Shown: in pieces, positions 2,181 through 15,750 of the stretch
How positions within the stretch are numbered: position 1 is the first letter of the stretch
Layout: every line of letters begins with the position of its first letter
NCBI GenBank assembly: GCA_945897365.1
Contig: CAMDFD010000008.1
Span: forward strand, 1 to 32,000
Origin: Bordetella parapertussis
GTDB taxonomy: Bacteria > Pseudomonadota > Gammaproteobacteria > Burkholderiales > Burkholderiaceae_B
Length of the DNA: 32,000 nucleotides
Reading direction: 5' to 3'
Notes under the pieces: generated by a model
The model's input: only the letters and a program-made list of their open reading frames with translations
The model's database searches: none
What the model was told of the DNA's origin: nothing
Position numbers and translations under genes: made by a program

Positions 2181-2199
2181 ATGTCTTTTTAAAGGACAT
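2181..2199. repeat. Degenerate copy of the 20-bp palindromic motif (ATGTCTTTTTAAAGGACAT)
   Basis: It matches 17 of 20 positions of the consensus ATGTCCTTTCAAAAGGACAT, with one deleted base. It lies ~200 bp outside the tRNA-Phe repeat at 2400. Confidence 0.45.
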
Positions 2200-2363
2200 T
2201 ACACGAAAAGGATACTCCCTTCAATTGCGGGCGGATAGTAAGAGCGGTCAAGTAGGACCCAATATCACCACTTGTAAGGTCAACACTCTGACTTCAGATA
2301 AGCTACGCTGAATCTAGGTAGGTAACCATCCGTTACTTTAGGGACAAATGGCTAGGGTGGAAA

Positions 2364-2390
2364 TGAAAAAAGAGAGCTAGAAGCTCTCTT
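2364..2390 (-). terminator. Rho-independent terminator that would follow the displaced tRNA-Phe 3' end
   Basis: An 8-bp stem AGAGAGCT/AGCTCTCT (2371-2378 / 2382-2389) has a 3-nt loop. On the minus strand a T-run follows it (complement of the A-run at 2364-2370). Confidence 0.55.
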
Positions 2391-2399
2391 TTTGAATCT

Positions 2400-2447
2400 T
2401 GGTGGCCCGGGGCGGAATCGAACCACCGACACAAGGATTTTCAATCC
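2400..2447 (-). repeat. 48-nt copy of the 3' end of tRNA-Phe (distal att-type repeat of the island stack)
   Basis: TGGTGGCCCGGGGCGGAATCGAACCACCGACACAAGGATTTTCAATCC is identical to 18561-18608 of the intact gene. It runs from the CCA end into the anticodon loop, and the sequence diverges immediately afterwards. Confidence 0.9.
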
Positions 2448-2802
2448 CGTACTCACCGTCTTTAGACTATAGATTTCAAACGGTTAAGTCACCCCGTAAA
2501 AATGTCGCGCACAATTTGTGCTTATAAATCATGATGTTGGGGCGGGTCGTGAAAACTGTGAGCACATATTGTGGCAGCGTTTGCGAAATTGCTCAAGCAA
2601 AAATGTGTAACGAAAAATTGGGCGGGCGCTGCGGCATTGGATCGACGCTGCTGAAATCTGCCGCATATTTCCCACACTTCGCAGCCCCTTGTCGGTCACA
2701 CCTTATGTAGGTCGTCCAAAGGCAGCAATGGGCATAAACTTTGAGTAGCGACTGAGATTTCGATACAGCCCCGATTGGGGAGTAACAGTGCAAACGACTG
2801 CG

Positions 2803-2985
2803 TCAAATTTGCGCCGCAGCTGCCCGTTGTAATTTCTTTTGAGCGGCTTGCACTTGTTGACGCTTGCGCTCAGCCTTAACAGCCACTTGTGCGCGGTCTA
2901 CATTCTGTTTCAGCACTGCAATTCTTGCCTGTGCTGGAGTTTGTGGCAGTTGGGGTTTGATTGTTGTGACTTCGTAAATCAGCAT
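2803..2985 (-). CDS. Small basic hypothetical protein (60 aa, Ala/Gln/Lys-rich, probably helical)
   Basis: An ATG is preceded by GGAGAG at a 5-nt spacing. The gene lies just downstream of, and on the same strand as, the 146-aa gene. I recognise no family. Confidence 0.45.
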   Translation of the reverse strand: MLIYEVTTIKPQLPQTPAQARIAVLKQNVDRAQVAVKAERKRQQVQAAQKKLQRAAAAQI

Positions 2986-3009
2986 TGGTCTCTCCGTTGC
3001 TGTATTTAC

Positions 3010-3039
3010 TCAACTGTCGTGTAACACGACACTTCAACA
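3010..3039. repeat. Inverted-repeat partner A with palindromic core GTCGTGTAACACGAC (3016-3030)
   Basis: Its reverse complement matches 15751-15783 at about 30 of 33 positions (TGTTGAA..GTCGTGTTACACGACA..GTTGA). Confidence 0.6.
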
Positions 3040-3051
3040 ACAGGGTTGTTA

Positions 3052-3072
3052 AGCGTCCCGTTACAGGACGCT
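3052..3072. repeat. CGTCC-N7-GGACG palindrome, copy i (AGCGTCCCGTTACAGGACGCT)
   Basis: A perfect 7-bp inverted repeat AGCGTCC/GGACGCT surrounds CGTTACA. Related copies lie at 14341-14363 and 15548-15570. Confidence 0.6.
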
Positions 3073-3077
3073 TGCAC

Positions 3078-3515
3078 TCAACGCTTAAAGCCAGAACGCA
3101 GCGCACCGCTAGCGGATTCAATTTGAGCATCAAGCTCGCCAGTCTCAACGGCAGTTTTAATAATCTGCAGTATCCCTACTAGATGATCTGCAGCGCCAAC
3201 TTCGACGGTGGCTTTGCCTTTTGCTAGCTCAAGCTGTTTTGCACCATAACGTACAGTTAAACAAACTTTGCCATCTGTATTGGTCCACCACATGGGACGA
3301 ACACGCCGCTGTATTTCAACAGTCTTACGGCTGCCATCTTCACTGGCGACAGTTTTGAAACGAGTTGTGTTGTATGTCTGCCCTTGTTGTTGAGCAAGTG
3401 CCAACTGGATTTGATCAGCAAGTTTGCCAGCTAATTTATTGCGACGAATCTGGATAGGTGCCAATGCGGCTGTGCGTTTGGTATTACTCAACTTCAAATT
3501 TGCGAGTGCACTCAT
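3078..3515 (-). CDS. Conserved-looking hypothetical protein (146 aa from the internal ATG)
   Basis: The tracked ORF is 3078-3653. The ATG at 3515 (MSALANLKLSNTK...) has AGGAAA upstream, and the 46-codon N-terminal extension looks non-coding. I vaguely recall ~145-aa proteins of this type from proteobacterial islands but cannot name a family reliably. Confidence 0.65.
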   Translation of the reverse strand: MSALANLKLSNTKRTAALAPIQIRRNKLAGKLADQIQLALAQQQGQTYNTTRFKTVASEDGSRKTVEIQRRVRPMWWTNTDGKVCLTVRYGAKQLELAKGKATVEVGAADHLVGILQIIKTAVETGELDAQIESASGALRSGFKR

Positions 3516-3664
3516 TATGTATTTCCTAGATGTTGATTGGGCACACACAGACTGTATTTTCATATCGCCGACAAGGTCGATCAATTTCACCAAAATGCCA
3601 TAGAAAACTAAGAAATCAGGCTGTTTTTCGTATAGAAATATTTGGTCAGGCATAAATAATTGCG

Positions 3665-3857
3665 AGTTGCTTAGTGAGTTGCATTAGGTTGCTTGAAGAA
3701 AGAAGTTGCTTGTTACTAGTTACTTGTTACTGCTGTGGGACAAATGAGTAGCTCTGACTGCAACGCAGCTACTCGTGCAACCCCAGTCACTCAGTGACAG
3801 GCAACCCGCGACAAGCGACTTCTTTTGTTCCCTGCGACTTCTCGCAACTAATGCAAC
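3665..3857. promoter_or_regulatory. Divergent intergenic control region with dyad-arranged pentamer arrays
   Basis: RGTTGC occurs at 3665, 3677, 3687 and 3704. GTTAC occurs three times at 7-bp spacing (3712, 3719, 3726). An 8-bp-stem hairpin lies at 3746-3753/3767-3774. The complementary GCAAC occurs at 3760, 3777, 3801, 3844 and 3853. Confidence 0.4.
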
Positions 3858-3893
3858 CACTGCGACCAATCCATATTCTTAAAGGAGAAACAA

Positions 3894-4343
3894 ATGGAGA
3901 AGGAAATCGCGGTTCGTTTATTCGAAAACAAAAAGTTAGGAACTACATATGGCAAAGGCCTTTATCGATCAGCAGTACTAAATGCCAGCGTTGAGATTAA
4001 AGATCCGCACGTGAAATATTTATTAGATTTTTATCAATTCGACCGCTGGCAGCACACGGCCACGACAGATAATCAAATTGCCATGCTTGACCAAGTGGCT
4101 GAGCATTGTTCGTCAACAGATTTGACCAGTTGGGTGACACGCTACAACCCAACAACAAAGGAAAAAACGCCAGTCCAAGGAATAGCGATCTTGGATGAGC
4201 AAAGCCAAATGCTTCGAGTGATTGTGATTGATCCAGAGTTCAACATGGAGGATTCGTGGATCTTACCTGTTAGGGCTTGTAGCGTGACTCGCAACAATTC
4301 ACCCAGCTTGATTGCGACCAATACAGAATTGGCTAGTTGGTAG
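3894..4343 (+). CDS. Hypothetical protein (149 aa)
   Basis: An ATG has AAGGAG 8 nt upstream. The composition is protein-like. I recognise no motif. Confidence 0.6.
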   Translation: MEKEIAVRLFENKKLGTTYGKGLYRSAVLNASVEIKDPHVKYLLDFYQFDRWQHTATTDNQIAMLDQVAEHCSSTDLTSWVTRYNPTTKEKTPVQGIAILDEQSQMLRVIVIDPEFNMEDSWILPVRACSVTRNNSPSLIATNTELASW

Positions 4344-4462
4344 AAAAAAGCTCTTACACAGAGAAGTGCACAGACAAAGTCTTCGAGATAAATGCGAATT
4401 GTTAGTAATTCAATTACTCAATTAAATCGTTCTGTGTAAGAGTCCATTTTGAACATAAATTT

Positions 4463-4720
4463 TTAGAAGAACCACCAAATCCAAGTTCCGATTACATAAA
4501 AAATTCCAGAACCAAGAGAAGAAGCAATCATTTGAAAAATACCAGTTTTAACTTCACCCTTGACCATAACAATGATCGATAGAATGAATGCGACATTCGT
4601 GAGTACCAAACCCACTATGCCCAAGCCTGTTATCGGAATTAAGAAGCATGCCCAAGCAATTAGAACTGTGATCCAACCGGCTCTTACTGGAGGTTCCATT
4701 ACTTTTGAAGGAATACTCAT
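4463..4720 (-). CDS. Small membrane protein (85 aa, ~3 hydrophobic helices)
   Basis: The ATG at 4720 (MSIPSK...) is preceded by GGGAGAG; the track's start at 4732 is a TTG. Three long hydrophobic stretches are present. Confidence 0.6.
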   Translation of the reverse strand: MSIPSKVMEPPVRAGWITVLIAWACFLIPITGLGIVGLVLTNVAFILSIIVMVKGEVKTGIFQMIASSLGSGIFYVIGTWIWWFF

Positions 4721-5230
4721 TGTCTCTCCCAAATATTTTATTAATCAGTATTTTTCCAATAAATGCCAAAATAAAAACCAAAATCAATTTAGCATTCAAT
4801 TCTAAAAACAACAATTAATTTGTGATTTTTGATGGTTTTCATTTCATGACTTTCTGTTGGGTAAATGTCTGGTGCTATTGGCTACGAAACTGGGTTTCTA
4901 ACTGAAATCTTAATTAGCGCCCTGTAAAAAAAGCCCTACAAGCAAAGATCAAGCTCGTTTGAATATCAACACAGCTGGCTCGATAAATAACTGCTTGTAG
5001 GGCTCTGAATTTTCTGCAAAATCTTCGTGGGAAAAGAGCCACAAAACGGCAATTATGAGAACCAAAGGTAATTCGTATTTGCTTTGGTTCTGTACTTATA
5101 TAACCGCTAAGTCGTTGAATTCTGGGAGAAATCACACATGCTAGGTATCAACAAGAAACAGGTCGTCCAAAAATTAAAAAGAAATTACGCTTATTCCATA
5201 GCAATGCTTTGGTTAAGGAAGAAGCCCAAA

Positions 5231-5806
5231 ATGAGCAAACAAGCAAAGACGTTAACACCACAAGATTTGCGCCGTGTAATGGACTATGTAGCAACCCGTC
5301 CACACGCAGCCCGCAATCGTGCGATTGTTTTAATGATGTTTTACGCAGGGCTTCGCGTTGGAGAAACAGCCAGCTTGCGGTTACAGGATGTGATCGACGC
5401 AAATGGGCAAGTTCGCGATGAATTCGTACTGCGACCAGATCAAACCAAAGGTCGTCAAAGCAGAACAGTATTTGTCAGTGAGAAATTAAAGCGTGAATTG
5501 ACTGTGTACATCGCAGCAACAAAGACCCTGCATCCCAACGATAAGCTGTTTTACACACAGAAGAACTTGTGTGATGGCTTTAGTGCCAACACGCTGACGC
5601 AACACTTGTTTTGGATGTACCGTCGTGCAGGTATACAGGGAGCTAGTAGTCATTCGACACGTCGTACATTCATTACCAATTTAGCTGCGCAAGGGATCTC
5701 CGTTCGTGTACTGGCTAGCTTGGCTGGACACGCCAGCATAGCCACTACCCAAGCCTATATCGATGTAAATGATGACCAGAAGCGTAAGGCAGTGGAATTG
5801 GTGTGA
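5231..5806 (+). CDS. Short tyrosine recombinase (191 aa, catalytic domain only, FimB/FimE-like size)
   Basis: Motifs are RPHAARNRAIVLMMFYAGLRVGE (Arg I), HSTRRTF (His-x-x-Arg), LAGHASIATT and QAYIDV (Tyr nucleophile). There is no N-terminal SAM-like core-binding domain. The ATG at 5231 has AAGGAAG upstream; an alternative ATG lies at 5138. Confidence 0.85.
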   Translation: MSKQAKTLTPQDLRRVMDYVATRPHAARNRAIVLMMFYAGLRVGETASLRLQDVIDANGQVRDEFVLRPDQTKGRQSRTVFVSEKLKRELTVYIAATKTLHPNDKLFYTQKNLCDGFSANTLTQHLFWMYRRAGIQGASSHSTRRTFITNLAAQGISVRVLASLAGHASIATTQAYIDVNDDQKRKAVELV

Positions 5807-5852
5807 TGTCCGTTCAAAAGGACAAAACCATATTATCCTTTCAAAAGAACAT
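5806..5852. repeat. Tandem pair of the 20-bp palindromic motif (copies 2a and 2b)
   Basis: Copy 2a is ATGTCCGTTCAAAAGGACAA (5806-5825) and copy 2b is TTATCCTTTCAAAAGAACAT (5833-5852). Copy 2a begins on the last base of the recombinase stop codon. Copy 2b ends 6 nt from the stop of the convergent gene. Confidence 0.8.
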
Positions 5853-5858
5853 AACCAT

Positions 5859-6866
5859 CTATGCCAATAGATCGCTGCTGCCGTCTAAGAACGCAGGGAG
5901 TCGTCTGCGTACTTTGCTGTCTGGCATTCTATATTCGTTATCTAGACGATTGCGTCTAATGACCTCTGATTTCAGCTCAGTTAAATATGTCTCTGTCAGC
6001 CACACCTGCCAAGCAGACGTATTTGTAGCATAAGTACTCACAGCAGCTTTAAAGTCTTTTTGATGCTTGGCTCCGAAAGGGGCGTAATCATCAGGTAGGA
6101 CTATCTTGCTGTTGTTGGGAAAAGAACCACGCTCCACATTCAACAGAGTTCGTTCAGCTTTGTACAGGTAACGACCTGTCAGGCTATGCAATTTATCGAA
6201 TGGGCTACTGCCTGTATTAAATGCAATACGTTCTGCTGTTCTTACCTTGAGACTAGGGGCGATTTGTAGCCTATCCCCAATTCGCCAGATCTCCGTGCGT
6301 GGATACAGCAGTCGGTACAGCAACACCAAGTATTCAATTTCCAGTGTTCGCAGCCTGAAGCGTTTGGTGTGCAGCCTAAGAAGCGCATTACTCCTCTCGA
6401 CTACATTGAGATCGCGTCCCCGATGCCTTGGCACACCGTCAATCTGTTGCTCCAACAGGTCTTTGAGTTGTTTGAAGATGGTGGCTTTGCGTATGGTCAG
6501 CGGAATTTCAACGATCAAGCTGTTTTCATACAGCTCGATCTGAGCGTCAGTATTTGTTGGCTCAAGATCGACAGTACGCACTTTGGCTGGACGTTTAGCT
6601 TCGGCAAATACCGCACTACCTGTTGCCGCCCACCACTGGCTAAACCACCGTAAGGATAAGTCGCCAGCCCTTTCATATGCTTCAGCAACCACAGGGTCTG
6701 TAGGCGTAACGCTGGCGTGGCGTGCGTACCAATAAACTGGACTTAGCCGTAGGAACTGCCACCACCAGAAATAAACACTCCTCTCGGCATCGTGAGCCAG
6801 CAGCGTGTCATCAGTACGTGTAAATCCGGGCAAGCCTTTGAAAAAAGGATGTTTTTTTATTTCCAT
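5859..6866 (-). CDS. Hypothetical protein (335 aa) with a Trp-rich N-terminal segment
   Basis: This is a long ATG-initiated ORF with the distinctive stretches YFWWWQFLRLSPVYWYA and WFSQWW. I cannot assign a family. Confidence 0.7.
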   Translation of the reverse strand: MEIKKHPFFKGLPGFTRTDDTLLAHDAERSVYFWWWQFLRLSPVYWYARHASVTPTDPVVAEAYERAGDLSLRWFSQWWAATGSAVFAEAKRPAKVRTVDLEPTNTDAQIELYENSLIVEIPLTIRKATIFKQLKDLLEQQIDGVPRHRGRDLNVVERSNALLRLHTKRFRLRTLEIEYLVLLYRLLYPRTEIWRIGDRLQIAPSLKVRTAERIAFNTGSSPFDKLHSLTGRYLYKAERTLLNVERGSFPNNSKIVLPDDYAPFGAKHQKDFKAAVSTYATNTSAWQVWLTETYLTELKSEVIRRNRLDNEYRMPDSKVRRRLPAFLDGSSDLLA

Positions 6867-6996
6867 TTCATAACTGTAACAACTTTATCAATTATTCGAA
6901 AGTATCTGTTACGAATGACAAAATGCTCTTCATCGATGAGGCACAAACAACGGCACTTTCGCCACAACCGCCGAGTCGATAATTTGGAGAGTAAAA

Positions 6997-7851
6997 ATGA
7001 CTACAACCTTCGCGCAGTCCCCCGTCCTGACCACAGCAGTATCGGGCAACAAAAGTGCTGCAATGCAGCAAAATATCGTAGGTGAACAAAAGGTCGCTAA
7101 TTTGATATCGACTCAGCAAGCCAATTCGATGCGTCAGCGTATCGAGCAGTTGGCTGTGGAAGTTAGTGTTTGGGAAACAGGCGCATACACTGATTCAAAC
7201 AAGATCCTTTATGGCTTGTTGCAAAAGTCGTATGCCCTGTACTTAGATCTGACCAACAACGCGGATGGCAATCTCAAGCACCGCAAACAGGGCTTGGCTG
7301 ACTACTTGTCGCTTTCGGGTATGAGTGGTTATGAGGACAAGCCCTTGCCACAGCGCATCATTGCTTGCGTGTTTGGCAAGCGTGACCGTCGTCGTATGTC
7401 AACCTATCACGTGGTCCTGCGCTACATCATTGCTCAAAAATGGGACGTGGCAGCTGTGCCAGCAAACATCGCAGCTGCGGGTGGTGTACAGGAAATCTCG
7501 CTGGGGCGTCCTTCAGGCAGTTTGACAGCTAAGGAAAAGGCTGCGGTCGCAGGCCGACAGATCAATCAAACAGTGCTTGCAACTGTTCACGGCGCAGAGC
7601 TTGTCAAAACTTTTAATCCTGATTACTCAGGCGAGCAGTTTGCTGCGGTGTTGACACAAGAAGCAGATGGCAGCTTCAGCATTCACTGTGTGGTCAAGAG
7701 CACTACAGCGGTCAACGCAGCTTTGTCAGCTTATTTCGCAGCCAACAAAGATCAACTCAAGCAGGCGATTGATCAACAACAGGCAGCCAAAGCACAGGCC
7801 AATTTGGATGAGCTTAAAGCTGCAGCCGTCAATCACCCACTCGCAGCTTAA
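6997..7851 (+). CDS. Hypothetical protein (284 aa) with an Ala/Gln-rich, coiled-coil-like C-terminus
   Basis: An ATG has GGAGAG 6 nt upstream. It is divergent from the 335-aa gene and followed 45-57 nt later by the AAA+ gene. I recognise no catalytic motif. Confidence 0.7.
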   Translation: MTTTFAQSPVLTTAVSGNKSAAMQQNIVGEQKVANLISTQQANSMRQRIEQLAVEVSVWETGAYTDSNKILYGLLQKSYALYLDLTNNADGNLKHRKQGLADYLSLSGMSGYEDKPLPQRIIACVFGKRDRRRMSTYHVVLRYIIAQKWDVAAVPANIAAAGGVQEISLGRPSGSLTAKEKAAVAGRQINQTVLATVHGAELVKTFNPDYSGEQFAAVLTQEADGSFSIHCVVKSTTAVNAALSAYFAANKDQLKQAIDQQQAAKAQANLDELKAAAVNHPLAA

Positions 7852-7908
7852 ACAAATCGGGGGGGCGCAAGCCCTCCCAATAATCTGAACTAAAAATTGG
7901 AGAACACT

Positions 7909-8574
7909 GTGTTTAAAGAAGAAGATTTTGTCCCAAAGACAACAGCTGACTTGGTATTTGGCAACGCTCAATCTAAGTCGCTACTGGATGACTTGATCAG
8001 TGGTAACTATCCGTTTCCTGCCGTTGGCAAATGTGGAATTTTGCTGTGGGGAACTTGGGGTACTGGTAAGACTGCTGCTGCCAAGATCATTCCAGATGCG
8101 ATGGAAACTGCTCAGTTCAGCACAGACTCAAACTGGCACTTCGAACCTTGCGTAGCAGGTGGTAATGGACCTGCGCTCCTGAATCGGCTGGATAATCAAA
8201 CCCAGTTCGTTTCGTTCAACGCTAGTGGTCGTCATTACATCGTGTTAGATGAGGTTGATAACTTGACTGCAAATGCACAGTTGCATTTGAAATCAATTAT
8301 GAATCGTAAGGATGTTGTTTGGATTATGACTACCAACTACATCACGGGGATTGATCAAGGCGTTCAAAATCGATGTCATTTGATAGAGATGAATGCAGCT
8401 GACGCATCTGCGTGGTTGCCGCTGTGCCGGCGTGTGCTGGCATCTTGCGGTTCGGCACCGTTGCCAGACGCGGTTTTGCTACCAATCATTACAGCAGGCA
8501 AGGGTTCGGCGCGAGAGATCATCAACTCAGTAGCTCAAGTTGCTTTTGATCGAGCAAGAAAACAAGCCACGTAG
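7909..8574 (+). CDS. Clamp-loader-clade (RFC/DnaX-like) AAA+ ATPase lacking a collar domain (221 aa)
   Basis: It has Walker A GTWGTGKT, Walker B YIVLDEVD followed by LTANAQ..LK..M, sensor-1 MTTN, and NRC in the position of the clamp-loader SRC arginine-finger motif. The GTG at 7909 has GGAG 6 nt upstream; the track's start is a TTG at 7897. Confidence 0.8.
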   Translation: MFKEEDFVPKTTADLVFGNAQSKSLLDDLISGNYPFPAVGKCGILLWGTWGTGKTAAAKIIPDAMETAQFSTDSNWHFEPCVAGGNGPALLNRLDNQTQFVSFNASGRHYIVLDEVDNLTANAQLHLKSIMNRKDVVWIMTTNYITGIDQGVQNRCHLIEMNAADASAWLPLCRRVLASCGSAPLPDAVLLPIITAGKGSAREIINSVAQVAFDRARKQAT

Positions 8575-8577
8575 GTT

Positions 8578-8597
8578 ATGTCCTTTCAAAAGGACAT
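8578..8597. repeat. Perfect copy 3 of the 20-bp palindromic motif ATGTCCTTTCAAAAGGACAT
   Basis: It begins 3 nt after the stop codon of the AAA+ gene. Confidence 0.85.
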
Positions 8598-8672
8598 TGA
8601 CGTTGCCTTCTATTTTTTAGCCAATTCACTAATCTCATTCAAATCACAGATTTTTAATTCAAAGGACTAAAA

Positions 8673-8987
8673 ATGAAACAGTTTCAATCTGACGCAATCC
8701 CTCACACTTGTGCAGACGCAAAAATCAACAAGCTGCGATATGTCGACGCTGTATTCGCGTTAGAAGTAAAAAATGCAAAATATCGTGGAGCAGTTTTTAG
8801 CGGCATCATCGAACTTGTGAACGGGACTGACAGCATTCGTAAGTACAAAGGCACTGACCGCGCAAATGTCAAGCTAGCTTGGTTTGGTCAGGAGCTCAAA
8901 AAGCGTAATCCGTTCGTCAATCTAGCTAACGCAGAAATAACACTATTGCCTTGCTATACAGGTAAGGTTGTAGCGTCATTGGGGTAA
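8673..8987 (+). CDS. Hypothetical protein (104 aa)
   Basis: An ATG has AAGGA 7 nt upstream. I recognise no motif. Confidence 0.5.
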   Translation: MKQFQSDAIPHTCADAKINKLRYVDAVFALEVKNAKYRGAVFSGIIELVNGTDSIRKYKGTDRANVKLAWFGQELKKRNPFVNLANAEITLLPCYTGKVVASLG

Positions 8988-9040
8988 AAGTAATGGTAGA
9001 TATGATGATCCAGTTAGCTAAACTTGTCTCTGTGGTTTGA

Positions 9041-9238
9041 AAGAGCGGGCACGCACAAGCGGGCACTCCACTCACCAAGTTCCAAGCCTTGGGTGGATGG
9101 CTCACGATACAGATGGTCATGCGTTATGCCCACCTGTCTCCGGTGCATCTGACCGAGCGCGGAAGCAATGTACTATTTACGGCACAGCCAGCCCTAGAAA
9201 CACAAAAGCCACCGACAATGGTGGCTTTAAGTGCATGA
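9041..9238 (+). pseudogene. C-terminal remnant of a tyrosine integrase gene
   Basis: The frame starting at 9041 reads KSGHAQAGTPLTKFQALGGWLTIQMVMRYAHLSPVHLTERG...*. This is the typical integrase C-terminus (GTPL..LQ.LGGW....MV.RYAHL, including the catalytic Tyr). A stop lies immediately upstream at 9038-9040 and there is no N-terminal part. The hairpin AAAGCCACC/GGTGGCTTT at 9205-9228 overlaps its end. Confidence 0.75.
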
Positions 9239-9249
9239 TTTTACTAGGA

Positions 9250-9297
9250 AATACTGATGCCCCCCCCGTGAGTCGAACACGGCACCAACGGATGATG
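9250..9297 (-). repeat. 48-bp repeat M1 containing a tRNA(CAU)-like 3' end (degenerate CCA)
   Basis: On the reverse strand it reads anticodon loop CAT, stem TCCGT, T-arm CCGTG-TTCGACT-CACGG, acceptor GGGGGGC, then A-TCA. It has 2 mismatches to 13584-13631. Confidence 0.75.
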
Positions 9298-9389
9298 GGG
9301 GGCGGGCGCTCTAAGAAAAACCACTAGGATTTCAAGAGCTAAGTTAATCCTCCATTTTAAGATACACGGTCAGCAGAGTTGAAAGCTCG

Positions 9390-11057
9390 CTACGTCTTGG
9401 TGCCCAGTAAGGGAAACATTTCATTCGCAAACTCACCGGCAACCTTTAATGCCTGAGCGCCTGTAATTTTGGCATTCGGATCTTTAGGTAAGGAAGGCAC
9501 AGCATACCCAGTACGATGCGCAAATTTTATGATCGCTGGAATCATCGCCTGGGCTAACTCTGAATAGGCAGTGTCCAAATTATTAGGATCAGGTGCAACG
9601 TAAGGAGGGGCAGGCCTAGCCATGAGGTTGGGCCAAGTGCTAGGGTCCCGTGGCGTTTTTAAGTTGAAACAGGTTTCCAATGTTCTAGCACTTGCATCAC
9701 GTTGAGTAAACGGCTGACCTAAGTCCCAGACTTTGCGTAGAGTCGCAATCATGGAGGTATGTCGAAACTCTTGAGTAAACACAGTCTTTTCAGAAATCCA
9801 AGGCGAGATCATGATTGCCGGAGTCCGATAGCCCGACCAAGTGAAATCAAAATCATATTGAGCCTTGGGGGCAGAGGCCTCAGGAGCAGGCACCCGCGAA
9901 GGTGGCACGTGATCGTAGGTGCCACCGGGCTCATCCCATCCAATAAACAATGTTGTATTCAAGACATTCGCACCCGCTTGCTTCGTACCCATTGCCTTGT
10001 AAGCGTTATAAATACGAGACAAAAAAACTTCTCCACTCAGTACCGATGACGGGGGATCTAGTGCCAGGTTCTGACCCGCCATAATGGCCATGCCAGCACT
10101 GGGATGATAGTCAGCATGTCCATTGACCAGCGGCGGCTCAATAAATGCAAAATTAGGTAGTGTGCCATTCGCACAGTCTTTTTCATACTCAGAAAAAGGC
10201 ACGATATGAGTCGCAAAATACTTTCGTAGTACAGGCATACTTACCAAACCTGTAAAGGATAGTGGGTCAGGCTGTCCCACATAAATTTTCCAAGTTTTAC
10301 CTTTTTCAGAGAGGCGATTAAAAATAGTTTCTGCCTTGTTATCAATCAGAAAATTATCGGCTGGCGAGTTAACGACAAAACCAGACGAGGTGCCCGCCAC
10401 CCAAAAAGAACGGTTGGGAAACGTCTGCGATGGCACTTCTGAAAACCAATGATCAAAACAAGAAAACCCTCTGGCTAAGCCAGTAATCACTGGAATTTGC
10501 TCTGGCACAAAGCCAGTCATGATTTCAGAGTACTCTTTATAAGTCGGCTGGCGAAGATGATCAGCGGTAAAGTTGCTGATGTAATCTGCAACAAAGCCTT
10601 GCATATTGGGGATGGAATCAGGTGACTGCGGAGCATTCCAAGGGGCAGCCATATCTTTACCCATCTTGAACTTATTATGTTCATCAACGGTATTGAACAT
10701 CTGCGTCAGGGTATGAGGATATTCTTCACCAGGATCGGATGTGGGCGAATTCATCGAGGTTGCCACCCCGTAGTGAACCCTCCCATCAGGCGACTGATGC
10801 TGAGCCCAAGAGGGAACTGAATTACTCAGCTTTTTACCTACGACACCCTCAAATTGCGGCACCTCACCCTGCTGGTACAAGTACCCTAAAATATTATCGA
10901 AAGAGCGATTCTCAAATAGCACCAAAATCACATGATTCATCGCACTATCTTTAGTTAACTCAGTTTTGAGCTCAGCAAGTGCGGGATTTCCGAGAGCAAC
11001 TGCAGCGCTTCCTGCTGCAGTCGTTTTAAGAAACTTTCGACGATTAAAGGCATTCAT
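9390..11057 (-). CDS. Tat-exported phosphoesterase family protein (phospholipase C / AcpA acid phosphatase type)
   Basis: The N-terminus is twin-arginine, MNAFNRRKFLKTTAAGSAAVALG..ALA. The hallmark VLFENRSFDNILG is present. The protein is 555 aa from the ATG at 11057 (GGAG upstream); the track's start at 11069 is a TTG. Confidence 0.85.
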   Translation of the reverse strand: MNAFNRRKFLKTTAAGSAAVALGNPALAELKTELTKDSAMNHVILVLFENRSFDNILGYLYQQGEVPQFEGVVGKKLSNSVPSWAQHQSPDGRVHYGVATSMNSPTSDPGEEYPHTLTQMFNTVDEHNKFKMGKDMAAPWNAPQSPDSIPNMQGFVADYISNFTADHLRQPTYKEYSEIMTGFVPEQIPVITGLARGFSCFDHWFSEVPSQTFPNRSFWVAGTSSGFVVNSPADNFLIDNKAETIFNRLSEKGKTWKIYVGQPDPLSFTGLVSMPVLRKYFATHIVPFSEYEKDCANGTLPNFAFIEPPLVNGHADYHPSAGMAIMAGQNLALDPPSSVLSGEVFLSRIYNAYKAMGTKQAGANVLNTTLFIGWDEPGGTYDHVPPSRVPAPEASAPKAQYDFDFTWSGYRTPAIMISPWISEKTVFTQEFRHTSMIATLRKVWDLGQPFTQRDASARTLETCFNLKTPRDPSTWPNLMARPAPPYVAPDPNNLDTAYSELAQAMIPAIIKFAHRTGYAVPSLPKDPNAKITGAQALKVAGEFANEMFPLLGTKT

Positions 11058-11367
11058 CTCTAACTCCAATTTAAAATTCAGATATCACGGAAAGTGCGAG
11101 GCCAGCCATCGTTTTCTTCAATGCACGCATCACTTTCCCTACACAAGAAGTTGATTACTTCAGTGGCCTTTCCGCCTTGAGAGCGTGAGCCTTGCGGGCA
11201 AAACGTATGATGCTTAAAAACAGAGCAACTGCCTCTTTCACTCGCACGACTGTAGGCTATTGGCTTAGCAATACGAATGTACTTTGGTACAGTTTTGCCG
11301 CAATAACCCTAAATGGTTTACGCTATCAACAGGTTTTTTCTCTGACGTTTTTATTGATGCTGAGAAT

Positions 11368-12810
11368 ATGAATGCGTTTGCCGTCCTGAGCCTGATCTAC
11401 TTTCTCTTCACGATCATTTCAAGCATTATTTTGTACTGCTCGTTCAGAAAAAAATTAGACGCATCTGCGATTTACTTTTTGCTGTCTGAACTTTCAATGG
11501 CGACTACCTGCGCGGCCATATTTCTGGTCAACATACAGGTGATTGACGTCAATGCCACTTCAATTGGCATCCCAAATTTCGGGGCGTTAGCCGCCGAACT
11601 CTGCATTCTGTTTAGTCTGCTATCGATCGTGAAGCCGGTTAGCCGACGATGGTTTATCTTAGCCATTTCAATGCTGGGCTTAATGACCATACTTCTTGAA
11701 TCAATGAGAAGCCCAACGGAATATCGCATGGTGATTCTGGTTAACGCCATGGCTCTAACCTGCCTGTTCGTCATCAACTACTTTCTTTGTCGACGCAAAT
11801 TACTGCCGTTGTTACAGACGAATGGGTTTATGCGCCTATTTGGATGGTTTGAATTAGGCTTAGTAGGTTTTGGTTTGCTGCGATTGCTCGGAAGTTTTAT
11901 CGGAACACCGGTCATCCCAAGAGAGGTGCCAACTCAACTGGCGATTATTACGTTTGCGCTATATTTGGTGGTCGGCACTTTCCGCTATTTGTGCTACGTC
12001 GGATTTCGGATGACCTGGGTAGATCCAAATAATCCATCTGAGAATTTTCTCAACAAACCTTTAGTGAAGGCCATCGAAGAAAAACAACAATTTTTACAAG
12101 GGTTCATTGCATCAAATCGCATGATCGGCGTGAGTGCCCTAGCGAGTTCCCTCGCCCATCAGCTCAGTCAACCACTCACAACGATTGCATTCAGAGCTGC
12201 AACAACTCGACGAGAGTCAATTGAATCCGAGGAAAACTCTAATTTGATTGCCTCTCTAAATGAAATCAGTACTCAGTCAGAAAAACTTGCTGATCTCGTT
12301 CACAATCTCAGAAAATTATTTGGCGCTAAAAGCGATCAATTTAAAATCATCAATCTTCAAAAAATTACGAATGAAATTCTTGAAATCATTGCGCCTACGC
12401 TTGAGCAGAAAAAAATCACTTTACTTGTCAAATACCAAATAAATCCAATGGTCTTTGGCGATAGCGTTCAATTGCAACAAGTACTTATCAATATATTCAA
12501 CAATGCAAGCGAGGCACTGAGCGAGATTGGGGTTAAAGAGCGAGAGATTTCAATTACGCTAAGCGAACGTGAACAATTAGCGGTCATGACGATCGCCGAT
12601 AATGGTCCAGGTATCAATTCAGCAATACTTTCATCTATGTTTGAGCTTTACAACACCACAAAAGAGAACGGCTTAGGAGTTGGTCTGTGGCTTAGCAAAA
12701 TAATTATTGAAAAGCATCAGGGTCAAATTCGCGCATTTAATCGTCCCAACGGTGGAGCCATATTTGAAATTGAATTACCTCTACATGAGGCGGAGAAAAA
12801 AACGCAATGA
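11368..12810 (+). CDS. Sensor histidine kinase with a 7-TM N-terminal domain
   Basis: Seven hydrophobic helices precede the H-box SSLAHQLSQPLT, N-box NIFNNASEA, and G-boxes DNGPGI and GLGVGLW. The start is uncertain (ATG 11368 versus TTG 11284). Confidence 0.85.
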   Translation: MNAFAVLSLIYFLFTIISSIILYCSFRKKLDASAIYFLLSELSMATTCAAIFLVNIQVIDVNATSIGIPNFGALAAELCILFSLLSIVKPVSRRWFILAISMLGLMTILLESMRSPTEYRMVILVNAMALTCLFVINYFLCRRKLLPLLQTNGFMRLFGWFELGLVGFGLLRLLGSFIGTPVIPREVPTQLAIITFALYLVVGTFRYLCYVGFRMTWVDPNNPSENFLNKPLVKAIEEKQQFLQGFIASNRMIGVSALASSLAHQLSQPLTTIAFRAATTRRESIESEENSNLIASLNEISTQSEKLADLVHNLRKLFGAKSDQFKIINLQKITNEILEIIAPTLEQKKITLLVKYQINPMVFGDSVQLQQVLINIFNNASEALSEIGVKEREISITLSEREQLAVMTIADNGPGINSAILSSMFELYNTTKENGLGVGLWLSKIIIEKHQGQIRAFNRPNGGAIFEIELPLHEAEKKTQ

Positions 12811-13463
12811 AGGGGATGCGGGTCATCATTGTTGAGGACGATGCAGCGCTGAGGTTAAGCCTGACCGCGTGGCTTTCAAAGGACTATGTAGTGAGTTATT
12901 TTGAGTCTGCTGAAGCTTTACTCGAAGCACTCAAGGACTTTAAATTTGAAGATGGGTTGCCCACATGCATGCTGCTAGACTTTCAAATGCCGGGCATGAA
13001 CGGCGTTGAGCTACAAGCTCAACTTCATCGGATGGGTATTGAATATCCAGTCATCTTCATGAGCGGCAATGCATTACAAGCCGATATCATTGATGCCTGG
13101 CACGGAGGGGCCGTTGATTTTCTACTCAAGCCATTTAATGTCGACAAATTAAACGAAACTTTTTTAGCACTTTTTCAAAAGTGTGAAGACATAAAATCTT
13201 CTTTTCCACCGGCGATTCATAAAGAGGCGGTGGTAAATATCCCCATCAGTCCACGCGAGGCTCAAGTACTTTTGTTGCTCGGCACAGGTCATAAGCAACA
13301 CGAAATTGCGGAGATGCTACATGTCACTCTTCGAACAATCAAATGGCATAGAGCCAACCTGAAGGATAAGCTTGACTTAAACACGCTTGTTGAATTAGCA
13401 AGATATTGCATTGAAAATCGTGCATCAATAGAAAATATTGCAACGCGTAAGCTGAAACATTAG
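12807..13463 (+). CDS. Response regulator, REC plus LuxR/FixJ-type HTH
   Basis: It has VIIVEDD, LLDFQMPGMNG and LLKPF (receiver domain), then a C-terminal SPREAQVLLLLGTGHKQHEIAEMLHVTLRTIKWHRANL. Its ATGA start overlaps the kinase stop. Confidence 0.9.
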   Translation: MKGMRVIIVEDDAALRLSLTAWLSKDYVVSYFESAEALLEALKDFKFEDGLPTCMLLDFQMPGMNGVELQAQLHRMGIEYPVIFMSGNALQADIIDAWHGGAVDFLLKPFNVDKLNETFLALFQKCEDIKSSFPPAIHKEAVVNIPISPREAQVLLLLGTGHKQHEIAEMLHVTLRTIKWHRANLKDKLDLNTLVELARYCIENRASIENIATRKLKH

Positions 13464-13583
13464 TCGTTCGCTCGCCCTAGGGTGCCGCGGGTGGCACCGA
13501 GAACCAGTAAAAGCAGACAGAGCGGTAGCATGACTCAGAAAAGAAAAACGGATTTGAGAGCAAACCGCCCGCAAACCCGCATC

Positions 13584-13633
13584 AATACTGGTGCCCCCCC
13601 CGTGAGTCGAACACGGCACCAACGGATTATGAG
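13584..13633 (-). repeat. Repeat M2 containing a tRNA(CAU)-like 3' end with an intact CCA
   Basis: On the reverse strand it reads CTCATAA-TCCGT-TGGTG-CCGTG-TTCGACT-CACGG-GGGGGGC-A-CCA. The sequence 5' of the anticodon loop cannot form the D-arm or acceptor stem, so this is a fragment. Confidence 0.8.
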
Positions 13634-13691
13634 AGCGCATACTCTAGCTAGCATAGCAACAAAGTTGCACGTCTGCAGCATAGCGTTTACC

Positions 13692-13778
13692 AACTGTACA
13701 CGCAACGTGTGTTTTAACTGTACGTAACTGTGCAAAACTGTGCATACAAGCGTGTGTAAATGTACTGGTATTTGTGCA
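13692..13778 (+). repeat. Array of AACTGTRCR nonamers (iteron- or arm-site-like)
   Basis: The copies are AACTGTACA at 13692, AACTGTACG at 13716, AACTGTGCA at 13726 and AACTGTGCA at 13736; the last three have exact 10-bp phasing. Weaker copies are AAATGTACT at 13758 and ATTTGTGCA at 13770. Confidence 0.5.
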
Positions 13779-14201
13779 CCATAATTCAAATTACATTGGC
13801 TTAATCGACAACAAGCATTTAACGTAGCAAGCGTGTACGCACCAATTCAACGAACTGCTACGTTTTAATGGACACGGGACGCTGTATGAATTGCGACCAA
13901 TTTCCTAGACACTCGCTAGCTTCTGGTTAAACTACCATCCGAATTTTACTGACGAGGTAATTATGATTGTGAGCAAGAGTCGTTACTACCCTGCGAACGA
14001 AGGGGTGGAATGGTACGGACTTCACGAAATATTTAAATGCGATGCAAGCTGGGATGGTCGTTTATGATCCCGGACCCAAGTTAACCGATGCTAGTACTGA
14101 TCGATCGAGGGTTAAAGCACGCAGCCAATTCCGTATTTCTGTAAAAAACCTGTCGATTCTTTATGAGAAATTTGAAGATGTTGCATTCTGATTTTTAACT
14201 T

Positions 14202-14221
14202 TTGTCTTTTCAAAAGGACAA
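14202..14221. repeat. Copy 4 of the 20-bp palindromic motif (TTGTCTTTTCAAAAGGACAA)
   Basis: It matches the consensus at 17 of 20 positions and has the same TTCAAAA centre orientation. Confidence 0.7.
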
Positions 14222-14340
14222 AACTAACTTATTCCCCAGCTAGTAGCCTGTGCCTGCGTCGGCTCTGCAGCATGTCAATATTCATCTCCCCTGACAGTGG
14301 CCGAGCGTAAAATCGGTCAATCATTTCAACACTGGTTCAA

Positions 14341-14363
14341 CCGTCCCGTAACTAGACGCTTGA
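14341..14363. repeat. CGTCC-N7-GGACG family, copy ii (CCGTCCCGTAACTAGACGCTTGA)
   Basis: It matches 15548-15570 at 22 of 23 positions. The single difference (A for G) breaks the palindrome. Confidence 0.6.
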
Positions 14364-14370
14364 TCATTCG

Positions 14371-14396
14371 GTCATGTCCTTTCAAAAGGACATGAC
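14371..14396. repeat. Copy 5 of the palindromic motif, extended to 26 nt (GTCATGTCCTTTCAAAAGGACATGAC)
   Basis: The 20-bp core at 14374-14393 is perfect, with 3 extra paired bases on each side. It ends 4 nt before the integrase stop codon. Confidence 0.85.
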
Positions 14397-14400
14397 TCAT

Positions 14401-15666
14401 TCAAGCCAACTGCCCTGCCGCCATGGTAGCTGTAAGTTTACTGTAGTGCCGTTCAATCATCAGCACGGAGTTTCCCATCTGCCTTGCCAGCGTGTGTATG
14501 TCAGTGCCATTCTCCAGCAGTTCCAGTGTGGCGTAGGTATGCCGTAGTGAATACAGCGTACGTGCCTGACCACTACCCGTCAGCAGTAATCTCGTATCCT
14601 TGAGCAATCGCTTGAACATGCCATCCACTCTTGCTGGTTGATGCAAGTCCTCGCAACGAAATACCAGTTGTGAGCAATTGCTGGTCAATAATTGATCAAA
14701 TGTCATGCCTGTAATATCACTTTGCCGTGCGTGTAGTCTTTCCAACACAGCTACTGCAGCATGTTTGGCAATCAGCCAGCGCCCCCCAGTTTTGCCATCC
14801 ACCCAAATTCGCAAATATCTAACGCCCTTGTCTTTGTGCCAGCTGATGTGTTGCCAACGAATGCCTAGTGCTTCCGTGCCATGTCGCATGCCTGTGTACA
14901 GCAACATCTCTACATAGTCACGCACCAAGGGTCGTGTGATCCGCTCTATTGCCAATCTGCCCTGACCAGTCCACTCAGGCATTGCTGCCACGAGCTGATC
15001 AATCTCAGCACGAGTAAACGCTGGACGAGCGACACTTTTGATGCCAACGGTTGTTAATTTAGGTATCTTGGCGTTGGGACTGATCCAGCCATTTCTAACA
15101 CCAGTTTCACGCAGACGATTCCAAGCCGAAGCGAAATTCATCAGTGTTGATGCTCTGGGCCGCTTGGCCATCTGCCGATCACGCCACAGCTCGAAGTCCA
15201 CAATGTCTTGATGGGTCAGCTGTTCAAATTGTGTGTCGCCGAAGTAGGGCAAGAAGTAACGTTCAATACAACTCACATAACTGTCGTATGCGGTCTTGCC
15301 ACGAGCAGCATCTATTTGTCGCCTCAGTTCTTCCAATGCGACAGCCGCAATTTGTGCGAAGCTGCGTGCGTTGTGTGCTAAGCCCAGTTTCAGGCGAAAT
15401 CTGGCAAGGTCATAAGCTTCACAGGCAACCGCAACTGCCAGCTCAAGTGATGCTCGTTTCGTTGACTGCCTGTGCCACGCACCGTTCCGGATGCGATAGC
15501 GGAATTGCCACAGTGGGCTATCCACACGACGAAACACAACTACATCACCGTCCCGTAACTGGACGCTTGAGGGTTGTGCGTATTGGAGACGGGCAAGTGA
15601 GGGGCGGTCGTAGGTAGGTGAGGTTACAAGTGCGAGAGTTTGGAGGAGATCTCGCTTGCGGGACAT
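14401..15666 (-). CDS. Tyrosine-type site-specific integrase (421 aa)
   Basis: The C-terminal catalytic domain has LYTGMRHGEAL-like YTGMRHGTEAL (Arg I), YSLRHTYATLELLENG (Arg II region) and MIERHYSKL (Tyr nucleophile). Its long N-terminal domain is typical of island integrases. Confidence 0.9.
   Translation of the reverse strand: MSRKRDLLQTLALVTSPTYDRPSLARLQYAQPSSVQLRDGDVVVFRRVDSPLWQFRYRIRNGAWHRQSTKRASLELAVAVACEAYDLARFRLKLGLAHNARSFAQIAAVALEELRRQIDAARGKTAYDSYVSCIERYFLPYFGDTQFEQLTHQDIVDFELWRDRQMAKRPRASTLMNFASAWNRLRETGVRNGWISPNAKIPKLTTVGIKSVARPAFTRAEIDQLVAAMPEWTGQGRLAIERITRPLVRDYVEMLLYTGMRHGTEALGIRWQHISWHKDKGVRYLRIWVDGKTGGRWLIAKHAAVAVLERLHARQSDITGMTFDQLLTSNCSQLVFRCEDLHQPARVDGMFKRLLKDTRLLLTGSGQARTLYSLRHTYATLELLENGTDIHTLARQMGNSVLMIERHYSKLTATMAAGQLA
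15548..15570. repeat. CGTCC-N7-GGACG family, copy iii, inside the 5' part of the integrase CDS
   Basis: CCGTCCCGTAACTGGACGCTTGA encodes ..SSVQLRDG.. on the minus strand. Confidence 0.6.
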
Positions 15667-15750
15667 TAGCGGAATAGGGCTTGTGTATTCATACTGCTAT
15701 TTTAATTTCTGATTTGCGAGAGGTCGACCTGACTTTTTGGTTGGCTACGA

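Follow-up and report, generated by a model that had tools for sequence, protein, structure and literature searches.

The near-perfect palindrome named P here is a conserved cis-acting, sequence-specific recognition site of small integrative islands of freshwater bacteria, and it marks the places where their gene blocks were gained, lost or rearranged. Its most likely function, which we hold to at somewhat below even confidence, is that of an island-specific module-junction recombination site. P was analysed in a window of Bordetella parapertussis DNA (the whole stretch of 32 000 nt, contig CAMDFD010000008.1, positions 1 to 32 000) and in related islands. The island family is previously undescribed; a literature search on DUF6641 and on such islands returned nothing. 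It extends over more than 120 metagenomic loci and genomes of Polynucleobacter, Fluviibacter, Zwartia and Alcaligenaceae, with distant relatives in soil bacteria. The islands measure 6–15 kb and nearly all of their proteins have no assigned function.

The island of the window is integrated at tRNA-Phe(GAA) (18561..18636, minus strand). Copies of the 3′ half of this tRNA form a distal att repeat (2400..2441) and an internal att repeat (16660..16701), the latter dividing the 14-kb island from a 1.9-kb remnant. The island genes encode a DUF6641 protein, which is a core member (3078..3653, minus strand), the beta-rich o149 of no assigned function upstream of sTyr (3894..4343, plus strand), the short Xer-like tyrosine recombinase sTyr, which consists of the catalytic domain only (5138..5806, plus strand), the conserved o335 without a recognised domain (5859..6866, minus strand), whose slot is occupied by very divergent alleles, the conserved helical protein o284 (6997..7851, plus strand) and an AAA+ ATPase resembling the small subunit of the clamp loader RFC (7897..8574, plus strand). 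In other islands the AAA+ gene is replaced by f1, encoding a protein of ~525 aa with no assigned function. A cargo region bracketed by P sites (8598..14201) contains two small ORFs, a TAT-signal phosphoesterase, a histidine kinase and a LuxR-type response regulator. A nested segment with 48-nt direct repeats at its flanks lies inside this cargo. The island integrase (14401..15666, minus strand) is a tyrosine recombinase of 421 aa with an N-terminal SAM-like domain. Neither the integrase nor a core protein has an identical sequence in the records.

The sTyr ORF encodes 222 aa from the first ATG; the length of 191 aa given in the initial annotation applies if translation begins at the probable start Met32 (5231). 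All of the catalytic residues (R-K-H-R-H-Y) are present. The best matches were XerC-like proteins, XerA and XerD, and a match to IntI4 was weak and partial. sTyr was found in 20 of the 21 islands with enough flank, and no other island protein is as conserved, its identity still being 48% at a distance over which P stays perfect. The possibility that o149 is a detached core-binding domain of sTyr or an HTH protein was rejected, its AlphaFold model (pLDDT 86) being beta-rich with no PDB match.

At up to 3 mismatches the window contained 5 copies of P against 0 expected, and 100 dinucleotide-preserving shuffles gave 0 matches. All 5 copies lie inside the island. Beyond 14393 the window has no further copy, the 13.4 kb of core sequence included. 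The initial annotation had described the motif as non-random, restricted to the island and adjacent to both recombinase genes, all of which was borne out. Exact copies of ATGTCCTTTCAAAAGGACAT were confirmed at 8578..8597 and 14374..14393, the latter within a 26-nt palindrome (14371..14396), as were variants at 5806..5825 (ATGTCCGTTCAAAAGGACAA; 2 mismatches, 8-nt spacer class), 5833..5852 (TTATCCTTTCAAAAGAACAT; 3 mismatches, a degenerate site) and 14202..14221 (TTGTCTTTTCAAAAGGACAA; 3 mismatches). A copy at 2181..2199 (AATGTCTTTTTAAAGGACATT; one arm mismatch), earlier listed as weak, truly belongs to the 7-nt spacer class and lies ~200 nt outside the distal att repeat.

The placement of these copies at the ends of the recombinase, 335-aa, AAA+ and integrase genes was as claimed. 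The first base of the copy at 5806 is the last base of the sTyr TGA stop codon, and the orthologous position is occupied in L026, L063, L078, L087, L153 and others. The copy at 5833 ends 6 nt short of the point where the convergent o335 (335 aa) stops; the two sites form a doublet 7 nt apart, and similar doublets occur in L110 and L140. The copy at 8578, 3 nt past the AAA stop, marks the start of the cargo region. DNA homology of the window to L026 and L017 stops at 8596–8599, and the position is kept in L009, L153 and L155, with proteins ~30% identical. The cargo region ends at the copy at 14202. The 26-nt palindrome ends 4 nt before the integrase stop codon (14401–14403), a position conserved in L014, L063 and many further islands.

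Metagenomes from lakes, soil and wood yielded ~100 related islands; together these contain 224 unique copies, in which the spacer is 7 or 8 nt long. Their density was 0.50 per kb inside the islands versus 0.04–0.06 per kb more than 1 kb away, a drop of more than tenfold. Each island has 5–7 P sites at gene 3′ ends, with units on both strands, and the blocks separated by P are the integrase, DUF6641-o149-sTyr, o335-o284-AAA or f1, and cargo units. P was rejected as the att site of the integrase: tRNA-derived direct repeats bound the islands and P is internal to them. A phage or plasmid origin was rejected as well, the 18-mer having 0 copies in 2.9 million viral contigs and o284 being absent from phage and plasmid collections.

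A gene 3′ end is the neighbour of 199 of the 217 intergenic copies, and the median distance to the stop codon is 5 nt; P occupies 46% of convergent, 31% of co-directional and 3% of divergent gaps. A palindrome in this position could be a common terminator, whether rho-independent or bidirectional, or a host repeat of the REP kind (the initial annotation had offered a REP-like element and factor-dependent bidirectional terminators as alternatives), and a few unrelated genomes carry the same 18-mer inside classical terminators (L058, L022). We nevertheless regard this as very improbable. Terminators have a GC-rich stem, a U-run and compensatory changes; P has no T-run, and no base-pair covariation was found among the related-island copies. 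A true terminator (a covarying GC hairpin with a T-run) sits between P pairs, and a terminator scan called no P copy. The sequence is conserved across phyla, the same 18-mer being kept where island proteins share just 22–48% identity. REP or BIME-type repeats are found at high copy number in core intergenic regions genome-wide. On the incomplete host genomes covered, the REP alternative was refuted: representative genomes contain only 1–4 exact copies, all beside island genes or tRNA-Phe att remnants, and the core sequence of the window and the viral contigs contain none.

It is also improbable that P acts in RNA, as a hairpin (5–8 bp stem) recognised by an island protein or RNase at mRNA 3′ ends with a role in stabilisation, processing or factor-dependent termination. 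The location just after stops would suit such a role, and, the site being a palindrome, the same hairpin would form in transcripts from either strand, so that one copy can serve two convergent genes. The predicted hairpins have energies of −8 to −16 kcal/mol (z-scores −3 to −6), and a 7- or 8-nt spacer would merely alter the loop. However, compensatory changes are absent, pair 6/13 is mismatched in ~30% of sites, the palindrome is not continued into the flanks, no U-run follows and Rfam holds no matching family. Nor would a mere difference in loop length be expected to stay constant throughout an island and to track a protein lineage, as the spacer class does. P is not a selected hairpin, and intrinsic terminators and structured RNA were both rejected.

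As a DNA site, P measures 17–20 bp and reads TGTCC-TTTYRAAA-GGACA, with asymmetry confined to the central 2 nt. Two forms occur across the family, TGTCC-TTTNAAA-GGACA (7-nt spacer) and TGTCC-KTTYRAAM-GGACA (8-nt spacer). The window site differs from its reverse complement at 2 nt, so it can be read as 9+2+9 or as 5+8+5. In 97 related loci (737 kb) the TGTCC/GGACA arms were counted with a 7-nt spacer (n = 132), an 8-nt spacer (n = 166) and other spacings (5–19), which is the tyrosine-recombinase-type layout of inverted arms round a centre of 6–8 bp. The initial annotation had gone further and assigned P the anatomy of loxP, FRT and dif with an asymmetric 8-bp centre, in which it was wrong. Those sites have an asymmetric, direction-giving and freely varying centre; that of P is palindromic apart from the middle CA, and TTT(N1-2)AAA is as strongly conserved as the arms, with variation only in the middle 1–2 nt. 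They have conserved arms of 9–13 bp; conservation in P beyond the A/T core amounts to ~5–6 bp per arm, the flank outside TGTCC being unconserved except for a weak bias towards A/T at its first base. We take the sequence of P to be unrelated to that of dif. A uniform orientation of the centre was correctly reported for the window; at equivalent junctions of related islands the orientation is mixed, and P as a directional site was rejected. The P sites of one island often have differing centres, and the spacer class is uniform inside any one island.

The structural comparison of islands bears on the proposal, made in the initial annotation and partly supported, that P splits the island into exchangeable modules. 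The four segments named there correspond to family-wide blocks (DUF6641-o149-sTyr; o335-o284-AAA; cargo; a short spacer next to the integrase). From one island type to another, P-bounded blocks have changed places or orientation, and the motif is found at the joints. One P-bounded slot contains either AAA or f1. Cargo with P on both sides includes a restriction system (4.6 kb in L155), toxin–antitoxin genes and genes of no assigned function. In L078 two P sites enclose 641 bp encoding the toxin–antitoxin pair RelB/YafQ, and L063, with flanks 95% identical, has a single P there. The same cassette type in Polynucleobacter acidiphobus is flanked by the palindrome of that island. Four cassette families (f6, f42, f55 and f65) recur in different P-adjacent slots, with identities of 80–87% that exceed those of the island core (22–69%).

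Other results qualify this picture. In a systematic indel search among loci at least 80% identical, only one of four events fell exactly at P, and gene replacement was also seen at breakpoints without P. The single P-bounded indel could arise by slippage between direct repeats of 18–20 bp without a recombinase. No structural variation was seen within a single population. Island types share at most 73% DNA identity and are too diverged for breakpoint mapping, and recent inversions between them were rejected as a line of evidence.

If P is a module-junction recombination site, site-specific recombination there would add, remove or flip modules. Two inverted arms of 5–6 bp round an A/T-rich crossover region of 7–8 bp would suit an Xer-like enzyme; XerCD substrates have central regions of 6–8 bp. 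sTyr would be the only recognisable candidate catalyst, and FimB and FimE are active recombinases of ~200 aa that lack an N-terminal domain. The integrase would work elsewhere, at the tRNA att site. Recombination at P would be rare on evolutionary time scales, and the o284/AAA+ pair may help to read or regulate the site.

Against recombination stands the 'spacer' of P, which is itself palindromic and conserved like the arms. In this the site looks more like two contiguous half-sites of 8–9 bp for a dimeric binding protein, and contiguous half-sites would leave a gap too small for a tyrosine-recombinase crossover. Mixed orientation and differing centres within an island would further hinder recombination between P sites. 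In a set of loci sampled centred on o284, which may bias the spacer-class call, the class was perfectly predicted by the o284 clade (66/66, nearest neighbour) and the AAA clade (46/46), and not by sTyr, the integrase, DUF6641 or o335, which weakens the module proposal with its element-encoded recombinases. sTyr proteins 88–92% identical adjoin different spacer classes, and the class does not follow the sTyr phylogeny.

The main rival reading, which we consider possible and distinctly short of probable, is that P is an operator-like binding site of o284, which would work together with AAA+ or f1. At many places in the island two contiguous half-sites (TGTCCTTT) would be occupied by a dimer, which would act as a roadblock or an insulator where genes converge or adjoin, or P would be an initiator or centromere-like site of the excised island, comparable to the KorB OB sites of RK2, mycobacteriophage stoperators or lambda O iterons; any recombination at P would be incidental. 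The half-sites of P, contiguous, symmetric and each varying independently of the other, fit such a dimer. In at least two sister pairs, even the P that comes right behind sTyr agrees with the o284 type. o284, AAA and P have remained neighbours where protein identity is ~30%, and also in an Acidobacteria prophage in which −10/+6 kb contain no tyrosine recombinase. The order P, hairpin/T-rich segment, P that follows AAA or f1 resembles an origin flanked by initiator sites. o284 has two invariant motifs, the basic RDRRR and GGVQE. However, no DNA-binding fold can be recognised in it and no structural relative turned up (searches of PDB, BFVD, Pfam, PHROG and PADLOC gave no match). P is nearly absent from promoter-bearing divergent gaps, and as a promoter operator it was rejected. 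Binding by o284 alone leaves the P-bracketed cargo and cassettes and the exact P–cassette–P indel unexplained, and the co-variation of o284 and spacer could instead reflect a need for matching partner sites within an island.

A broader proposal seems to us rather unlikely: o284 and its interchangeable partner (the RFC-like AAA+ ATPase or the ~525-aa f1) would be a new kind of site-specific DNA machine reading P, and the island an integron-like platform of non-integron parts, with cargo (restriction systems, toxin–antitoxin pairs, signalling genes) captured at P downstream of o284-AAA and the backbone genes themselves exchangeable P-bounded units. Freshwater Burkholderiales share the arrangement with Acidobacteria and with prophages of both.

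The finding would define an undescribed, widespread family of 6–15 kb islands whose blocks are delimited by one conserved 17–20 bp site. As a recombination junction, P would add a third natural system of modular cassettes to the integrons and pdif modules, and its own minimal Xer-like enzyme acting on a very short symmetric site would be a possible compact recombination tool. If o284 reads P, this would be the first functional handle on the o284 family, its AAA+ partner and DUF6641. Either way, a simple, testable model of the shuffling of defence and accessory genes in streamlined freshwater bacteria is obtained.

Among known systems, integrons carry an IntI-type integrase beside attI, and their promoterless cassettes come next in an array that runs in one direction. 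Their attC sites contain RYYYAAC...GTTRRRY boxes (R''/L''-L'/R') and form a long imperfect hairpin with extrahelical bases. Like integrons, the islands encode a tyrosine recombinase, P abuts or overlaps the stop codons of the units, and a cargo array including toxin–antitoxin genes extends from a fixed place beside conserved genes. Unlike attC, P has no GTTRRRY/RYYYAAC boxes, does not form such a hairpin and gives no sign of single-strand folding; the units run in both directions with their own signals, and sTyr (~190 aa) is Xer-like, not IntI-like. In consisting of the catalytic domain only, sTyr resembles FimB and FimE (~190–200 aa), which act on short inverted repeats. The Fim enzymes flip one promoter segment that has a 9-bp repeat on either side, whereas the islands have their several sites at gene 3′ ends.

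The KorB OB sites of IncP plasmids and the lambda O iterons are palindromes of 13–19 bp with an A/T-rich centre, bound by a dimeric protein of the element whose gene adjoins that of an ATPase or helicase loader. OB sites are dispersed over the replicon, mostly in association with promoters, and the lambda iterons are clustered at a single origin. P shares the palindrome with an A/T-rich centre, and the o284 gene adjoins an ATPase gene, but o284 has no similarity to ParB/KorB or O protein. The stoperators of Cluster A mycobacteriophages are asymmetric 13-bp sites of a monomeric repressor, oriented with transcription (PMC9283540, PMC6550527). Like them, P is a multi-copy site spread across a mobile element, close to stops where the intergenic gaps are short, and co-evolves with an element-encoded protein (PMC9283540, PMC6550527). 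At stoperators the bound repressor, which the element encodes, blocks the elongation of transcription. Unlike them P is a symmetric dyad, the island core genes yielded no protein of HTH or repressor-like type and the co-variation with o284 is suggestive only.

The pdif modules of Acinetobacter plasmids comprise one to a few genes, including toxin–antitoxin genes, and are shuffled between related replicons; the pdif sites measure 28 bp (11-6-11), have distinct XerC and XerD arms and are recombined by the host XerCD (PMC6449649, PMC13141974). Like pdif, P is a multi-copy short site at the boundaries of small accessory modules. Unlike pdif, it is a symmetric site of 17–20 bp with identical arms and a conserved A/T core, belongs to chromosomal islands with a short recombinase of their own, and sets apart the backbone genes as well.

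The window was scanned for the 20-mer ATGTCCTTTCAAAAGGACAT. Exact copies were found at 8578-8597 and 14374-14393, and variants with 2-3 mismatches at 5806-5825, 5833-5852 and 14202-14221; there was no copy to the right of 14393, and 100 dinucleotide-preserving shuffles of the window gave no match. All five 20-mers lie within a 14-kb island. These positions agree with the initial annotation, whose distances from palindrome to stop codon were also all correct when checked on the window sequence. The 'asymmetric 8-bp centre' that it described was a misreading: the site, ATGTCCTTT-CA-AAAGGACAT, is a 9+2+9 palindrome with 2 nt differing in its reverse complement, so that the centre is asymmetric solely at the middle dinucleotide. 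The uniform orientation proposed for this centre holds for four copies in a row in the window but is not a general rule, as both orientations of the central CA/TG occur at equivalent junctions and inside single islands. The weak copy at 2181-2199 belongs to a class with a 7-nt spacer. It lies about 80 nt upstream of a very large gene on the minus strand (1-2100), which crosses the left edge and contains more than 20 degenerate 72-nt (24-aa) repeats.

The tRNA-Phe(GAA) gene is located at 18561-18636 (minus strand), and three to four copies of its 3' half are present (2400-2441, 16660-16701, a partial copy at 17850-17870, and 18561-18602). About 70 nt of the terminator sequence downstream of the tRNA is duplicated too, at 16593-16659. 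The repeats identify the window as tandem integrative elements, namely the 14-kb island (approximately 2442-16659) and a 1.9-kb remnant (16702-18560) whose sole ORF encodes 266 aa. The core genes to the right of the island include hemA, prfA, prmC, ttcA, mnmH and atpB. The islands end in direct repeats derived from tRNA, and the palindromes lie between these repeats, which rules out the palindrome as the att site of the integrase.

The island carries genes for DUF6641 (3078-3653, minus strand), o149 (3894-4343), a short tyrosine recombinase, sTyr (5138-5806), o335 (5859-6866, minus strand), o284 (6997-7851), an RFC-like AAA+ ATPase (7897-8574) and the 421-aa integrase (14401-15666, minus strand). 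sTyr retains the R-K-H-R-H-Y catalytic residues and aligns best with the catalytic domains of XerC-like, XerA and XerD proteins; it lacks an N-terminal core-binding domain. The cargo genes encode a phosphoesterase, a histidine kinase and a response regulator. A 48-nt direct repeat (9250-9297 and 13584-13631, 96% identical), which on the minus strand corresponds to a tRNA 3' end (T-arm, acceptor strand, ACCA), flanks this 4.3-kb phosphoesterase/histidine kinase/LuxR response-regulator segment. The segment looks like a nested integrative-element remnant without its own integrase.

Palindromes of a second family, TGTCGTG-T(T)AA-CACGACA, are found both 3' of the DUF6641 gene and 5' of the integrase start (window 3015-3031 and 15759-15775; L070 3251-3267; L152 7620, 13436 and 14095). 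Copies of a third dyad box, CCGTCCCGTAACTGGACGC, are concentrated around the integrase gene and the island ends (window 3053-3071, 14341-14359 and 15548-15566; L004 around 580-600; L087 2821, 11805, 13737, 14041 and 14097). These boxes may be arm-type or excisionase sites of the integrase. One copy falls inside the 5' end of the annotated integrase ORF, so that the gene may actually begin further downstream.

The exact 18-mer was found at 61 loci among 185,579 species genomes, with about 17 expected by chance according to our own calculation. Most matches were singletons in unrelated phyla, some of them within classical terminators (L058). Those accompanied by the island gene set came from a cluster of freshwater Burkholderiales MAGs and, in one case, from an acidobacterium, with the motif at equivalent places. 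Viral contigs gave no match to the 18-mer, and searches of the phage and plasmid collections found no o284. The 80 clusters of the o284 family are all named hypothetical, and no Pfam domain is assigned to any of them. Related loci were gathered through o284 and centred on it: a metagenome scan supplied 80 additional loci (L072-L151), contig look-ups the Fluviibacter and Polynucleobacter islands, and distant o284 relatives the soil and wood metagenome loci. Much of the metagenomic set consists of short, partly redundant loci, and ORF calls were mechanical. Many islands of the family are located off tRNA sites (L065-L069, L080, L092, L104, L116, L130 and others), between two paralogous porin genes that are 71-90% identical, terminators included, as if the island had carried or duplicated a porin gene. 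The acidobacterial locus L157 (1-4142 and 10001-13336), on the same contig as L009, has its o284-AAA-DUF6641 genes in a prophage whose genes for the portal and the large and small terminases lie 6-10 kb upstream of them, a setting that hints at a replication or early module of a phage as the source of the island backbone.

Across 97 loci (737 kb), TGTCC...GGACA was counted 166 times at a spacer of 8 nt and 132 times at one of 7 nt, against 5-19 times at any other spacing and 26 times in shuffled sequence; at most one arm mismatch was allowed, so degenerate copies such as 5833-5852 were missed. Deduplication left 113 sites of the 8-nt class (TGTCC KTTYRAAM GGACA; form ATGTCCTTTCAAAAGGACAT) and 111 of the 7-nt class (TGTCC TTTNAAA GGACA; form ATGTCCTTTAAAAGGACAT). 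Nearly every island is restricted to one class. The TTT/AAA core is as conserved as the arms, and the flanks show no palindromy. Covariation is absent (pair 6/13: TA 76, TC 25, GA 9, GC 1, as expected for independent positions), indicating recognition by sequence and not a selected hairpin. With neither covariation nor an Rfam match (the search returned tRNA only), a function of the palindrome at the RNA level is improbable. In one island lineage a 7-spacer palindrome, kept in seven loci, lies within the AAA+ coding sequence about 38 nt from the gene start, where it encodes DVLSKDK (L139, L143-L149; e.g. L143 2104-2120). The right half-site AAAGGAC is Shine-Dalgarno-like (window 8660-8672; L069 10859-10881 and 13757-13782) and in some islands the palindrome ends 3-6 nt upstream of the next start, so it could influence downstream translation initiation.

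In the loci sampled, palindromes numbered 0.50 per kb within islands, falling to 0.31 per kb over the next kilobase and to 0.04-0.06 per kb farther out. The copies are largely intergenic (217 of 298, with 85% of the sequence coding according to crude ORF calls), and 199 are next to the 3' end of a gene, with a median distance to the stop codon of 5 nt. They occupy 46% of convergent, 31% of co-directional and 3% of divergent island gaps, and the divergent o335/o284 promoter region is free of them in 73 of 75 cases. The palindrome is thus an island-specific, sequence-recognised element at gene 3' ends and block boundaries. That it is an ordinary terminator or REP element is very improbable, given the fall in density outside islands and a terminator scan that called none of the palindromes. 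A canonical terminator (CCGAGC...GCTCGG followed by T6), which does covary, lies between the palindrome pair beside the integrase.

The palindrome is conserved across phyla, its copies bracket cargo and one cassette difference is bounded by it exactly. L063 and L078 have flanks that are 95% identical; between sTyr and o335, L063 has a single palindrome and L078 has two, separated by 641 bp encoding a RelB antitoxin and a YafQ-like toxin. RelB is 87% identical between L078 and L114 (backbone proteins 46-58%), and the cassette family f65 shows 80% identity in the L145/L146 pair (backbone 22-69%). Families f6 and f55 were found in differing slots adjacent to palindromes. The bounded slot after o284 is filled either by the AAA+ gene or by f1, an unrelated gene of about 525 aa; cargo always starts at the palindrome after one of these and ends at another copy (window, 8578 to 14202; L026, L070, L153, L155). 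In L155 (2679-7432) a 4.6-kb type I-like restriction-modification operon, encoding an 853-aa helicase/nuclease and a 670-aa methylase/specificity fusion, lies between two palindromes directly downstream of o284-AAA. In the Polynucleobacter acidiphobus island, gene ends carry a TGTCGTG-type palindrome, TGTCGTGTTTAACACGACA, in place of the TGTCC palindrome, and copies of it flank a RelB/YafQ-type cassette. The DUF6641-o149-sTyr and o335-o284-AAA blocks, each of which is palindrome-bounded, are ordered and oriented differently from one island type to another, in agreement with the segmentation into modules that was proposed from the window. The expectation that block breakpoints coincide with the motif was borne out by the L063/L078 cassette and not by L143 and L147, where the replaced segments have no palindrome at their breakpoints.

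We tentatively regard the palindrome as a junction for site-specific recombination, for which the short Xer-like recombinase sTyr would be the catalyst. Several observations complicate this model. Gene-by-gene mosaicism is common among islands, an indel was located at a palindrome in one case of four (loci at least 80% identical), and centres often differ between the sites of one island. The nearest relative of o284 gives the right spacer class in all 66 cases and that of AAA in all 46; sTyr predicts the class in 81-92%, and the integrase, DUF6641 and o335 in 79-94%. Members of one sTyr clade (at least 70% identity) fall 4:4 into the two classes: immediately behind the sTyr stop, AAA-type islands (L133, L124/125, L098) have a palindrome with a 7-nt spacer and f1-type islands (L140, L110, L063, L078, L087) one with an 8-nt spacer, and this switch is seen in sister pairs 92% and 88% identical. 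The acidobacterial prophage retains o284-AAA-palindrome-DUF6641, with no PF00589 gene within -10/+6 kb. The main alternative, somewhat less probable, is that the palindrome is bound by o284 and its ATPase partner and would serve as a roadblock, insulator or initiator site, recombination there being incidental. Confident models were predicted for o284 and o149; fold comparison found no structural relative of either and so could not name the protein that reads the palindrome. Objections to the recombinase-site model are softened by L153 and L154, which keep the perfect 18-mer at an sTyr identity of 48% to the window and at identities of 32, 31 and 22% for o284, AAA and o335. XerCD accepts central regions of 6-8 bp, and uniform spacing within an island could therefore reflect matching of partner sites.

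No mention of DUF6641 or of such islands was found in a literature search. There is a minority chance that o284 with the AAA+ protein or f1 constitutes an entirely new site-reading machine. The closest known systems are pdif modules (PMC6449649, PMC13141974), integron cassettes and stoperators (PMC9283540, PMC6550527). The palindrome lacks the defining features of pdif modules and of integron cassettes, and probably also those of stoperators; we rate the islands as a system of modular cassettes that relies on a short recombination-type site.
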